IMG/VR virus record: IMGVR_UViG_2537561716_000021
Source of the DNA: a virus
Taxonomy: Duplodnaviria > Heunggongvirae > Uroviricota > Caudoviricetes
Strand: one strand, 5' to 3'
DNA: 6,480 nt
The notes beneath the pieces are model-generated. The model was given only the letters and a program-made list of their open reading frames with translations, was not told the DNA's origin and ran no database searches. The first letter of the stretch is position 1; the number at the start of each line of letters is the position of its first letter. A program made the position numbers and the translations under genes. This document shows, piece by piece, positions 2,278 through 6,480 of this stretch.

Positions 2278-2317
2278 CCTCATAGACTTCGGATAGAAGG
2301 CTATCCTCATATACAAA
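2278..2317. repeat. ~36-bp hairpin-containing repeat, copy A (just upstream of the tape-measure gene start)
   Basis: ATAGACTTCGGATAGAAGGCTATCCTCATATA at 2282-2313 contains the hairpin GGATAG-aagg-CTATCC (2291-2306). Matches copy B with one mismatch in the loop, and flanking bases are also similar. Confidence 0.85.
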
Positions 2318-2357
2318 AAAGGAGAGTTACCCAGATTGCCATCCAGATAATCTCTCC
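2314..2357 (-). terminator. possible intrinsic terminator between the 72-aa gene and the tape-measure gene
   Basis: On the minus strand GGAGAG (2357..2352) and CTCTCC (2326..2321) form a 6-bp stem followed directly by TTTTTTG (2320..2314). The 25-nt loop is long for a classic terminator. Confidence 0.3.
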
Positions 2358-2373
2358 CGTAGATTTTTACTAA

Positions 2374-2614: not shown

Positions 2615-3325
2615 TCAAACAGCCTTGCTATACTTCTGAGAAATCTTCGTTAACTGCTCAATATCAGCCATTAAAGCAATCTTCTTCTGCGACTCATATT
2701 CACTAACAAGCTCTTTCATGCTATCAAGTTCTTTTCTAAGTTTTTGCTTTAACTTATCCAGTTTATCGGAGTAATGCTTAGTCAAATTAGCTTCAGCTAA
2801 CTGAAGAATCTCTTCATCTGTTTTACCAGTCATCAGAATAAATTGACCAGAACCCCTTAATGCTTGTCTGACATCAATTAACCGGAACCCTTCAGGGATA
2901 CTTTGAAGAACTTTAGGAACGTCTTCAATCGCTGTACCAAAACCATCATTAAAGTTTCCTTCATAATAGATAAACGGGTTTGACTTAATCTCGTAAGCAA
3001 TATCATATTCTGAAGGTTTCGAGGTTTCTTCGAAGTTCTTAACAGCATCGTAAGCAATATCAAGTCGAATACGTTGTTCTTTCAGCTGTGGGTAATATTT
3101 CTTTTCAAGCTCAAGTAATGCTTCACCCTTGCAAATATCAGGCATCTCTTGAGGTTCAGGAGCCACAAAGATGGTTGTTTTTGGTGACATCTTTAACTCT
3201 TGCTCAAGTGCAATTCTTTCATCGTGTTCTTTACGCTGAATAGCGATAGCTGGATGTTCAGTCTGTGGTGACCAGTCACCGAAGCTGTCAACCTTTTTAC
3301 CGTTAATATATAAATCGTTTGTCAT
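2615..3325 (-). CDS. hypothetical protein (236 aa) with Lys/Glu-rich, probably coiled-coil C-terminus
   Basis: Track ORF 2615..3370 begins at a GTG (3370..3368) with no ribosome-binding site. The internal ATG at 3325..3323 is preceded by GAAGAGGG at good spacing, so the start is trimmed to 3325. C-terminal ~60 residues (DKLDKLKQKLRKELDSMKELVSEYESQKK) look coiled-coil. No family recognised. Confidence 0.6.
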   Translation of the reverse strand: MTNDLYINGKKVDSFGDWSPQTEHPAIAIQRKEHDERIALEQELKMSPKTTIFVAPEPQEMPDICKGEALLELEKKYYPQLKEQRIRLDIAYDAVKNFEETSKPSEYDIAYEIKSNPFIYYEGNFNDGFGTAIEDVPKVLQSIPEGFRLIDVRQALRGSGQFILMTGKTDEEILQLAEANLTKHYSDKLDKLKQKLRKELDSMKELVSEYESQKKIALMADIEQLTKISQKYSKAV

Positions 3326-3347
3326 TGTTTTTCCCTCTTCTAAGTAA

Positions 3348-3437
3348 TATTCAGTTTTTAAAAAGCACACCTGACAGCCTACGAACTTAGAAGAGACTTA
3401 AAAGCGTTTGCCAAGTGTGCTTTTTAAAAACTGAATA
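3348..3437. repeat. perfect 23-bp inverted repeat (TATTCAGTTTTTAAAAAGCACAC) with 44-bp spacer
   Basis: Arms at 3348-3370 and 3415-3437 are exact reverse complements. Each arm contains TTTTTAAAAA. The left arm ends 22 nt upstream of the ATG at 3325 (minus-strand sense). Confidence 0.9.
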
Positions 3438-3530
3438 GCCCTAGATAATTTCTTATAAAGGGCCATTCATAAGGTGAAGAAATTAAAAGAACATCTAAAG
3501 GATTCAAATGAATGAACAAAGATTTTTGAT

Positions 3531-3562
3531 ATGGCCTATTTAGTGTGGGCTAAATAAGCCAT
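3531..3562. repeat. 13-bp near-perfect inverted repeat ATGGCCTATTTAG / CTAAATAAGCCAT with 6-nt loop
   Basis: Arms 3531-3543 and 3550-3562 with one mismatch. No adjacent T-run on either strand, so not a classic terminator. Confidence 0.7.
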
Positions 3563-3643
3563 GACGAAAAGCATTGCACCTTTCAGAATAACTATCCCTA
3601 GATGTAGATGGAATTGTTGAAAGAAATAAGAGAGAATTGCTCT

Positions 3644-3685
3644 CCCTATAGACTTCGGATAGAAGACTATCCTCATATATACAAT
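3644..3685. repeat. ~36-bp hairpin-containing repeat, copy B (in the long intergenic region)
   Basis: ATAGACTTCGGATAGAAGACTATCCTCATATA at 3648-3679 with hairpin GGATAG-aaga-CTATCC (3657-3672). Immediately preceded by the small hairpin GAGAG-aattg-CTCTC. Confidence 0.85.
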
Positions 3686-3736
3686 TATGTCATGCTCAAG
3701 GTTATTTGTCAACAGCTTTTTAACAGATTGGTAACA

Positions 3737-3814
3737 TCAATTCTTATTTACCGTATTACCTACCCAGCAACCAACCAATAAGCCAAGCAACGTCCAAGCA
3801 ATTATTAAACCCAT
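3737..3814 (-). CDS. possible 25-aa hydrophobic peptide (MGLIIAWTLLGLLVGCWVGNTVNKN), speculative
   Basis: ATG at 3814..3812 overlaps the TAA stop of the 109-aa gene (TAATG coupling). Hydrophobic stretch ends in a lipobox-like L-V-G-C. Below the track length threshold, and the N-region has no positive charge. Confidence 0.2.
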   Translation of the reverse strand: MGLIIAWTLLGLLVGCWVGNTVNKN

Positions 3815-4143
3815 TAGTGAATCCTCATAGAATCCGCAACCAAAACATTGTCAGCGTACAAAATTGTCACAGCACCTTTCAGAAATTGCTCTGGGCTGAC
3901 ACTAAGTTTGTTTGTCTGTTCGATAATCAATCTTTTCATGTTGCTGTCTTTAATTGGTAGCATCATTCGAGGCTCGTTAAACTCCACCGACTGAATAAAG
4001 TCAGAGATGTTTTCTGCATTATCAGCCATCAAAGCTAACAGCCGGTCAAAGTCAATGCTAATACCTGCATCAGTGAAGTGTTGAAGCATGGTCACTGTGT
4101 CGATATCAAGCATAATTTGTAATGGGAAGTTTAATTCTCTCAT
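3814..4143 (-). CDS. hypothetical acidic protein (109 aa)
   Basis: ORF from track. ATG at 4143 with AAGGAG upstream. Lies immediately downstream (minus-strand sense) of repeat copy 1. No motif recognised. Confidence 0.55.
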   Translation of the reverse strand: MRELNFPLQIMLDIDTVTMLQHFTDAGISIDFDRLLALMADNAENISDFIQSVEFNEPRMMLPIKDSNMKRLIIEQTNKLSVSPEQFLKGAVTILYADNVLVADSMRIH

Positions 4144-4173
4144 TTCTTAAAATCTCCTTTTTACCAGACCTCC

Positions 4174-4291
4174 TCAATCGCTCTGTAACGAGCTAAACAG
4201 TCTTTTTCAGGGGTAGCCTGTACAGTGGTATTACCCACCCTAAAATAGGGTAGTTTTTTGCGTTAGAATGCGATTGAGAGCGTCTGAGAAG
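4174..4291. repeat. bipartite intergenic repeat, copy 1
   Basis: Left flank TCAATCGCTCTGTAACGAG (4174-4192) and right flank AGAATGCGATTGAGAGCGTCT (4265-4285) are identical to copy 2. The 72-nt core is divergent and holds the hairpin ACCCTA-aaa-TAGGGT (4237-4251) followed by T6 (4254-4259). Confidence 0.85.
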
Positions 4292-5636: not shown

Positions 5637-5686
5637 TCATAAGCTGGCCCTTATAATTGTTAATTCTCTGTTAACTCATATATACA

Positions 5687-5715
5687 ATCCTAGCATTTTC
5701 AAAGGCTAATGTCAA
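5687..5715 (-). promoter_or_regulatory. candidate sigma70-type promoter for the 184/93/71/HNH operon
   Basis: Minus-strand TTGACA (5715..5710), 17-nt spacer, TAGGAT (5692..5687), about 50 nt upstream of the ATG at 5636. The -10 is weak. Confidence 0.4.
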
Positions 5716-5722
5716 GTATTTT

Positions 5723-5752
5723 TTAACATTTTATTAACATCTGTGGTATAAT
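5723..5752 (+). promoter_or_regulatory. candidate rightward promoter with extended -10 (TTAACA, 18 nt, TGgTATAAT)
   Basis: TTAACA at 5723-5728. TG at 5744-5745 followed by TATAAT at 5747-5752. Divergent from the operon promoter. Would transcribe repeat copy 2 and the small ORF at 5934. Confidence 0.5.
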
Positions 5753-5830
5753 GGGTTTATGGGGAGAGTAAAATATAAAGGCGTGGCCATGTATTTGGTC
5801 ACATGGTTATTGCATTGCACACAGACATCT

Positions 5831-5925
5831 TCAATCGCTCTGTAACGAGTTAAATGGCCTCTTCAGGTCAACTATAAGGTCAGGTACTTTTTTGTGTCAG
5901 AATGCGATTGAGAGCGTCTTACAAG
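5831..5925. repeat. bipartite intergenic repeat, copy 2
   Basis: Left flank 5831-5849 and right flank 5899-5919 are identical to copy 1. The 49-nt core is different but also ends in T6 (5888-5893). Confidence 0.85.
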
Positions 5926-6142: not shown

Positions 6143-6480
6143 TGAACCGCCCCGGGTTTCCTGGAGAGTGTTTTATCTGTGAACTCAGGCTGCCAGATCA
6201 TCGTTTCCGATGGAAGCATAATAAGCTTTTTCTGCTTCTGCCGGAGGAGTATGGCCCAGCCTTCCCAGCAATCGTCGATTGTTATCCCAGTCCACCCACG
6301 TTAGTGTGGCCAGTTCCACTTCTGCCGGTTTTTCCAGCTCTTACGGTGTATTACCTCCGCTTTGTAAAGACCATTGATGCTCTCGCCATCGCGTTGTCAC
6401 GAGTCGCCTGTACTCCCTGTTGATGCCAGTAATCCGGCTTCTTTTAGTCGCTCCGTATAGGCCAGTGACACATACTGAGA
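6143..6480 (-). mobile_element. IS3-family insertion sequence, terminal part (IS629/IS1203-like as recalled), continuing past the window edge
   Basis: Terminal sequence TGAACCGCCCCGGGTTTCCTGGAGAG starts at 6143 and matches the IS629-group terminal inverted repeat as I remember it. Minus-strand translation from the window edge reads SQYVSLAYTERLKEAGLLASTGSTGDS and later ESINGLYKAEVIHRKSWKNR and AEVELATLTWVDW...GHTPPAEAEKAYYASIGNDDLAA, a DDE transposase OrfB C-terminus. Composition is visibly GC-richer than the rest. Confidence 0.7.
6185..6480 (-). pseudogene. IS3-family transposase OrfB, C-terminal portion, disrupted
   Basis: In the frame that encodes SQYVSLAYTERLKEAGLLASTGSTGDS there is an in-frame TGA at 6399..6397, exactly where the conserved YDNA motif should be. 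The conserved C-terminal tail is then in a different frame (shift near 6322-6327) and ends at TGA 6187..6185. Hand-translated. Confidence 0.5.

Follow-up and report, generated by a model that had tools for sequence, protein, structure and literature searches.

Genetic Context of the Inverted Repeat

The DNA analyzed here, hereafter the window, is a stretch of 6,480 nucleotides that matches E. coli O157:H7 chromosomes with 100% identity. It belongs to a prophage-like element of about 12 kb inserted in yecE (DUF72), which carries genes for a large serine recombinase, baseplate and tape-measure proteins, proteins of 72, 236 and 109 aa and an HNH nuclease, among others. Every gene lies on the minus strand. 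The attachment sites of the element are found at yecE, about 6 kb away from the inverted repeat that is the subject of this study. Because of its size and position, the element is probably SpLE2 of E. coli O157:H7 strain Sakai, for which a length of 13,459 bp has been reported (PMC7430833). The end of an IS629/IS1203 insertion sequence (IS3 family) interrupts the element at positions 6143-6480 of the window, and strains that do not carry the insertion match the window up to position 6143 only.

The 236-aa gene occupies positions 2615-3325 and is followed, 22 nt downstream, by the 72-aa gene (2374-2592); the two genes are predicted to share one transcription unit. A putative sigma70 promoter (TTGACA-17-CATAAT with TG, an 11/12 match to the consensus) is found at 3684-3712 on the minus strand and is invariant in 12 relatives. 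Transcription from this promoter would yield a leader of approximately 350 nt that contains the inverted repeat, found some 335 nt downstream, in the form of a hairpin.

Two additional hairpins are found in the leader, both with compensatory variants in relatives. The 5'-proximal hairpin, GGGAGAGcaauUCUCUCU followed by a U-rich tail (3629-3647, minus strand), is terminator-like, and its stem is made of GGGAGAG/CUCUCUC. The second, AUGGCUUAUUUAG/CUAAAUAGGCCAU, lies at 3531-3562 on the minus strand. Between the 72-aa and the tape-measure genes, a GGGAGAG..(25 nt)..CUCUCC structure followed by U6 (2315-2358, minus strand) also looks like a terminator whose loop is unusually long; transcription of the 236/72-aa unit would stop there.

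The window contains repeats of the promoter-plus-leader module (3672-3738 and 5675-5741; 2270-2318 and 3636-3684): the promoter region occurs again, with 70% identity, upstream of the 184-aa gene, and the start of the leader (a GGAUAG..CUAUCC hairpin) recurs just 5' of the tape-measure gene. Both promoter copies harbor TGTTA-N7-TGTTAA upstream of the -35 and a -10-like TATATAT directly after the -10, and these shared motifs may be the site of a common regulator or a pause element. Another repeated non-coding module, 83-88% identical, is found at 4165-4291 and 5822-5925; the former copy holds an imperfect 26-nt inverted repeat (4165-4190 and 4261-4286) and a terminator-like site on the plus strand (4237-4251). 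In addition, an unannotated hydrophobic ORF of 25 codons, MGLIIAWTLLGLLVGCWVGNTVNKN, is found at 3737-3814 on the minus strand, with an ATG that overlaps the stop codon of the 109-aa gene (TAATG). The ORF is conserved in 11 relatives (an example of a variant is MELVIICFVLIGMIAGASIKV) with indels in multiples of three, and its product is probably a small membrane protein.

Many relatives have leaders with modules that are absent from the window (for instance, positions 6298-6816 in L002, 996-1628 in L007 and 765-1322 in L011), which are homologous to window positions 3440-3500. One of these modules is a clear intrinsic terminator, GCCCUAAucaugagUUAGGGCGUUUUUU, and a different one an AU-rich hairpin of 16 bp, UUUCUUUAAGAGUUUU..AGCUUUUAAAGAAAG; some leaders also contain a mini-ORF of 8 codons with its own Shine-Dalgarno (SD) sequence. 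The presence of such modules in the leaders of relatives suggests that expression of the 236-aa gene depends also on read-through or antitermination.

The 236-aa Protein

Searches with the 236-aa protein did not detect any Pfam, PHROGs, NCBIfam or PADLOC family, nor a sequence relative in the PDB. Its homologues number more than 3,000 at 90% clustering, all of them from Escherichia, Shigella or Citrobacter, to which the family seems to be confined, and a scan of genome contigs with the protein found one locus only. The N-terminal 60 residues, approximately, are mosaic (MTNDLYING.. vs. MSIRDEHE..), while the C-terminal 170 residues are conserved, with 25-71% identity. An AlphaFold2 model with a pLDDT of 74, of good quality over residues 68-236, shows a helical fold that includes a small alpha/beta unit. 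Foldseek comparison of this model with the PDB and BFVD did not yield a significant fold match (best E-value 0.036, TM-scores around 0.3). Automatic annotation labels homologues as 'transposase', and this label finds no support in the searches for family, structure or fold; the analysis corrects a misleading annotation.

A Predicted Long Hairpin Adjacent to the Ribosome-Binding Site

The inverted repeat has two perfect arms, 3348-3370 and 3415-3437, with 23/23 nucleotides paired and a spacer of 44 bp, precisely as described in an earlier note on this DNA. Each arm can be lengthened to 29 nt (3348-3376 and 3409-3437), over which complementarity as DNA is 93%. In minus-strand RNA, the 5' arm UAUUCAGUUUUUAAAAAGCACACUUGGCA (3409-3437) and the 3' arm UGUCAGGUGUGCUUUUUAAAAACUGAAUA (3348-3376) would form a hairpin with 27 Watson-Crick and 2 G.U pairs and an apical loop of 32 nt (3377-3408). 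In the window, each arm contains a T5A5 tract, as previously noticed. Between the end of the stem, at 3348, and the ATG of the 236-aa gene (3325-3323) there are 22 nt.

Chance does not account for the repeat: when the window was shuffled 60 times with its dinucleotides preserved, perfect inverted repeats with spacers of up to 100 nt reached a maximum length of 8-12 nt, compared with the 23 nt observed. The earlier note, which had made the same claim, also anticipated a very stable stem-loop in the minus-strand mRNA and proposed to fold it. The fold does predict the long hairpin: the minus-strand RNA spanning 3470-3320 (151 nt) has a free energy of -54.9 kcal/mol and a z-score of -7.2 compared with shuffles. 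A second occurrence of the arm sequence, which the note proposed to seek, was not found within 30 kb around the locus.

Two other readings of the region were discarded. A leader peptide encoded through the 5' arm would have no SD, and its ATG is absent from the window and from many relatives. As to an internal promoter in the loop, only poor hexamers are present, and none is listed in the promoter scan.

Compensatory Changes in the Hairpin Arms of Relatives

Among 5,426 complete E. coli genomes, 478 carry the intergenic region, with 60-100% identity, and the element family, common as these figures indicate, is also present in gut metagenomes. A set of 68 distinct leaders was gathered from complete genomes, IMG/VR contigs and metagenome contigs; a search of viral contigs with a short loop pattern gave mostly chance matches, which were filtered out. 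Five hairpin types (A to E) can be distinguished among the 68 leaders, with arms that differ widely in sequence, as illustrated by UUUUUAAAAAGCAC in the window, CUUAAUAGAGCAU in type B and UCGUCAAGUACAC in type E. The T5A5 tract is not conserved: it is replaced by CUUAAUAGAG and other sequences, and pairing is kept. The earlier note had considered that arms not conserved in related genomes would speak against its proposal; the sequences are indeed not conserved, yet the changes are compensatory, which argues for function.

RNAfold predicts the long hairpin in 68/68 leaders, and the main stem has 21-31 pairs in the 66 leaders whose structure was parsed by script (L159 and L174 were left out). 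In a MAFFT alignment (A1), a helix of 26 pairs shows standard pairs in 93.5% of the cells, and 17 of the 26 pairs have changed on both sides. RNAalifold independently recovers the identical stem, with 14 compensatory pairs. One pair (columns 24/85) is C-G in the window, U.G in most relatives and U-A in L155. When the stem was considered together with the helix that the loop can form with the SD region (41 pairs in total; see below), pairing was 89.4% in register and 39-52% with partners slid by 1-3 columns. The covariation score of these 41 pairs was 0.372 compared with 0.199 in shuffles, and 0/500 shuffles reached 0.372; however, because the 68 sequences come from closely related elements (around five lineages and two specificity classes of loop and SD, with few independent events), shuffle controls overstate independence.

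The strand on which the structure operates can also be deduced from the alignment. Standard pairs amount to 92.5% when the arms are read as the sense strand and to 85.4% when read as the antisense strand, and 70 G.U versus 17 A.C appositions are found on the sense strand across 26 arm variants. The fact that arms change while pairing is kept, together with a G.U bias that favors the sense strand, points to an RNA structure rather than to a protein-binding palindrome. Only three pairs, in the middle of the stem, are invariant: A-U (68/68), G-C (68/68) and C-G (66/68). They involve the A-G-C core of the 5' arm (3421-3419) and its partner G-C-U in the 3' arm (3364-3366), a candidate neighborhood for RNase III cleavage.

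A covariance model of the motif gave a single match per related element, in sense orientation and always immediately 5' of the 236-aa gene homologue. Scores of full-length matches were 51-114 bits, with the lowest (51.1) in a type C leader, and no match was detected in 0.8 Mb of unrelated viral DNA. The hairpin layout is kept where the downstream protein is only 25% identical, and persists also where the N-terminal 60 residues or so of the 236-aa homologue have been replaced. The region occurs at a median of one place per genome, always in the chromosome, and the annotated neighbors are found in the same order in the 18/18 relatives taken from complete genomes.

Co-Variation between the Loop and the Shine-Dalgarno Region

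A feature missing from the earlier account is a box in the apical loop, UCUCUUCUAAGU (3385-3396, minus strand), which is a 12-nt complement, with 11 Watson-Crick pairs and one G.U pair, of the SD region ACUUAGAAGAGG of the 236-aa gene (3334-3345, minus strand; the SD core, GAAGAGGG, spans 3340-3333). We will refer to it as the anti-SD box. Duplexes between loop and SD with predicted energies of -13 to -22 kcal/mol are found in 66/68 leaders (stem and loop were not parsed in L159 and L174), with z-scores of about -2 to -6.5 compared with dinucleotide-shuffled loops. The longest perfect complement of the SD region averages 9.5 nt in the loop, of around 33 nt, and 6.4 nt in the 110 nt upstream; the complement in the loop is the longer of the two in 62/65 leaders.

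The box and its target change together. In types A, B and E, the SD sequence is CUUAGA(A)GAGG and the loop contains CU(C)UUCUAAG, while types C and D combine an SD sequence (A)GAGGUGAA(U) with a loop sequence (A)UUCACCUC(U). Two classes were accordingly defined for a swap test: class 1, CUUAGAAGAGG with CUCUUCUAAG, and class 2, GAGGUGAA with UUCACCUC. Loop and SD of the cognate class gave a mean of -15.3 kcal/mol, compared with -8.9 kcal/mol for cross-class combinations. A caveat on the duplexes of loop and SD is that CU-rich loops pair fairly well by chance with GA-rich SD regions, and shuffle p-values are only 0.02-0.07 in class 2.

In most type A and B variants, 0-3 nt separate the stem from the paired SD segment; this linker measures 9 nt in some members of type A, and 8-21 nt in types C and D (the longest, 21 nt, in type D); in all these the stem has 22-31 bp. 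The plain minimum-free-energy fold of the hairpin plus the SD leaves the SD free. In nested folds that include 60-110 nt of upstream context, the predicted probability of the SD being unpaired is 0.19-0.67, and the partner differs among relatives. One such partner is an upstream CU-rich box, AAUUUCUUCACC (3473-3484, minus strand), whose pairing is weaker and inconsistent between relatives; the sequence just 5' of the stem can likewise pair with the SD. Because the upstream CU box pairs with the SD in these predicted folds, the loop may not pair with the SD exclusively, or even predominantly. Nested sequestration by the upstream box was considered: it may occur, but it does not involve a consistent partner across relatives.

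Proposed Mechanism and Alternative Explanations

On the basis of these comparisons, the inverted repeat most probably acts as RNA of the sense strand and regulates how the 236-aa gene is translated, by pairing of the anti-SD box with the SD. The structure, its strand, the compensatory changes, the co-variation of loop and SD, and a fixed position with one copy per element lend support to this view. A hairpin of 29 bp would form in the 5' leader, of approximately 350 nt, of the minus-strand mRNA of the 236-aa and 72-aa genes, and its 32-nt loop would display the 12-nt anti-SD box, which matches the ribosome-binding site of the same mRNA 40 nt downstream. Pairing of the box with the SD would block 30S binding and thereby set translation of the 236-aa gene, presumably by repression.

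The geometry of the hairpin raises, however, a difficulty. A linker of 0-3 nt seems too short to bridge a helix of 22-29 bp, so that the full stem and the full 12-bp helix could hardly coexist; partial pairing with the SD core alongside the stem may still occur. RNase III processing is invoked for this reason: a box tethered 0-3 nt away from a stem of 23-29 bp would hardly reach the SD in cis. From the same tether geometry it could be argued just as well that the complementarity does not function in the manner that we propose. RNase III is favored because a simple sequestering hairpin does not need a conserved stem of at least 21 bp, while RNase III does. The length needed by the enzyme, about two helical turns or more, is reached by the stems found here (21-31 pairs; 29 bp in the window). 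In vivo, RNase III prefers paired G-C/C-G at two positions between the cuts, which lie a median of 58 nt apart (PMC6212723). The invariant G-C/C-G in the middle of the stem is compatible with this preference, and cutting there would give about 56 nt.

The long stem with its invariant core may therefore be read as a signal for RNase III. Cleavage at the core would excise a stem-loop of about 56 nt carrying the anti-SD box, and the freed stem-loop would be able to pair with the SD without steric hindrance, either on its own mRNA or on sister mRNAs. A leader hairpin with an anti-SD loop and RNase III processing is, in our opinion, the best explanation for the whole set of observations, and one to which we incline with some reserve. 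Considered separately, excision by RNase III of a leader-derived hairpin RNA with an anti-SD box is a tentative proposal that we hold as possible, short of probable.

The main alternative is an unprocessed structure that acts in cis, which we consider rather unlikely. Within one molecule, the SD would be paired either with the loop box, in a full pseudoknot or a partial one placed alongside the stem, or with the upstream CU box in a nested fold with the hairpin as a clamp, and the gene would be silent until the structure is opened by a helper-phage factor, by a helicase, or by RNase III removal of the inhibitor, the last as happens in the lambda N leader or adhE. RNase III cleavage would thus activate translation instead of repressing it. 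The co-variation of loop and SD applies equally to such a structure, the nested folds lower the predicted accessibility of the SD, and the longer linkers of types C and D (8-21 nt) pose less of an obstacle. The short linkers that prevail in types A and B, the change of nested partner from one relative to another, and a conserved stem longer than simple sequestration needs speak against it.

A protein-binding site appears improbable, be it an operator palindrome in the DNA for a dimeric regulator, as contemplated in the earlier note, or an RNA operator hairpin for a translational repressor. Long palindromes can be operators, the invariant AGC/GCU core in the middle of the stem might be a recognition element, and several small proteins to which no function has been assigned are encoded nearby. 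However, half-sites are not conserved, and pairing is kept when T5A5 and other arm sequences are replaced; mismatches are biased to G.U on one strand; a spacer of 44 bp is unusual for a dimer; and the repeat lies around 335 nt downstream of the predicted promoter. DNA binding leaves, in addition, the co-variation of loop and SD unexplained. The DNA operator was thus discarded in view of the replacement of arms between types and the strand bias of both G.U appositions and standard pairs described above.

Highly improbable is a site that operates at the level of DNA, single- or double-stranded, whether in replication, packaging or recombination, or as a cruciform or miniature transposable element. 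G.T pairs would likewise be tolerated if the sense strand formed a hairpin as single-stranded DNA, and the element does encode a serine recombinase and an HNH nuclease. Against this possibility, there is a single copy per element, always immediately 5' of the SD of the same gene; neither dispersed copies nor target-site duplications are found, hence the rejection of a dispersed repeat or MITE; and the attachment sites lie at yecE, about 6 kb off. A co-varying complement of the SD is a feature of the translation level and therefore unexpected for a DNA site. The recombination or replication site suggested earlier is at odds with this co-variation, with the replacement of arms with pairing kept and with the G.U bias. 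Least probable of all is a transcription terminator, or the barrier that had been put forward before to separate the 109-aa from the 236/72-aa unit: the hairpin is very stable, but it is not an intrinsic terminator as a U-tract is missing after the stem on both strands, in relatives as well as in the window (where UAUUACUUAG follows it, and GCCCUAGAUA on the plus strand), a terminator scan of the window does not list it, and it lies downstream of the conserved, predicted sigma70-type promoter (3712-3684) that would start the 236-aa unit and separate both units.

Comparison with Known Systems

The comparative data indicate that the motif is a conserved, hitherto undescribed cis-regulatory RNA element with an unusual layout, in which an anti-SD box sits atop a stem of RNase III length that abuts the matching SD. 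A cmscan search of Rfam gave no family match either in the whole window (E<=1) or in region 3300-3830 (E<=10); only microRNA-like matches to long hairpins were obtained, below threshold. Searching the literature for reports of this family as a satellite yielded no relevant work. The hairpin is thus a clean RNA motif, backed by comparative genomics and absent from Rfam, and provides a handle on an uncharacterized, fast-evolving protein encoded beside the tape-measure gene.

Sequestration of the SD by an anti-SD sequence is known in mRNAs of type I toxins such as hok, tisB and aapA1, and in the leader of the IS200 tnpA gene. These leaders likewise contain CU-rich anti-SD elements, and the gene is silent until the RNA is processed. 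In those systems, however, the SD lies inside a stem and a long perfect hairpin is not found, unlike in the element described here; furthermore, nothing suggests that the 236-aa protein is toxic.

Translational operators that adopt a pseudoknot are found in repZ/repB of IncI/IncB plasmids, rpsO, the alpha operon and gene 32 of T4. They also have a hairpin loop complementary to the sequence of the ribosome-binding site, a complementarity that is supported by co-variation in our case. Their stems are short and their connecting loops are long enough, in contrast with the stem of 22-29 bp and the linker, often of 0-3 nt, found in our element. A classical H-type fold is therefore sterically doubtful here.

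RNase III acts on leader hairpins in the lambda N leader, the R sites of T7 and adhE. Like the element under study, such sites consist of a nearly continuous stem of at least 20 bp in a 5' leader, beside the ribosome-binding site. The G-C/C-G core found in the middle of the stem is also compatible with the preference of RNase III in vivo (PMC6212723). A difference is that leader sites of this kind are not known to have an anti-SD box in their apical loop; our element has one, and its cleavage is proposed on the basis of structure. Maturation of an antisense RNA by RNase III has a precedent in CJnc190, an sRNA that is cut from an intramolecular duplex and represses a ribosome-binding site rich in G (PMC8687705).

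The C4 antisense RNA of phages P1 and P7, to which the CI RNA of satellite P4 is related, offers further similarities. C4 is processed from the leader of its own operon, and one of its loops occludes a ribosome-binding site located downstream (PMC5320573). Our hairpin is likewise encoded in the leader of the operon that it would control, and its loop is complementary to a ribosome-binding site downstream in the same transcript, with co-variation of both. Specificity in C4 is set by a few co-varying bases (PMC5320573), and small co-varying differences between loop and target define specificity classes here as well. There are also clear differences. C4 folds into three stems with two loops for target recognition, while a single long hairpin is predicted in 68/68 of our leaders, and the C4 model of Rfam gives no match at E<=10. 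Maturation of C4 is carried out by RNase P, while RNase III is the candidate enzyme in our model, and the target is only 0-21 nt beyond the stem, unlike in C4.

In its proposed mode of action, the element is akin to the leader antisense RNAs of the C4/CI type and to the leader sites of RNase III, and is a member of neither. If the processing model is true, it would be a second, structurally independent element of phage type that makes an antisense repressor from its own leader. A bolder speculation, unlikely in our judgment, is that the hairpin might give rise to a leader-derived regulatory RNA of a new kind, a stem-loop of about 56 nt released by RNase III. Acting in trans, this RNA would determine immunity or incompatibility between SpLE2-like elements. 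If so, the two classes of loop and SD would be specificity types comparable to those of P1/P7 heteroimmunity, but the fold would be unrelated and maturation would depend on another enzyme.
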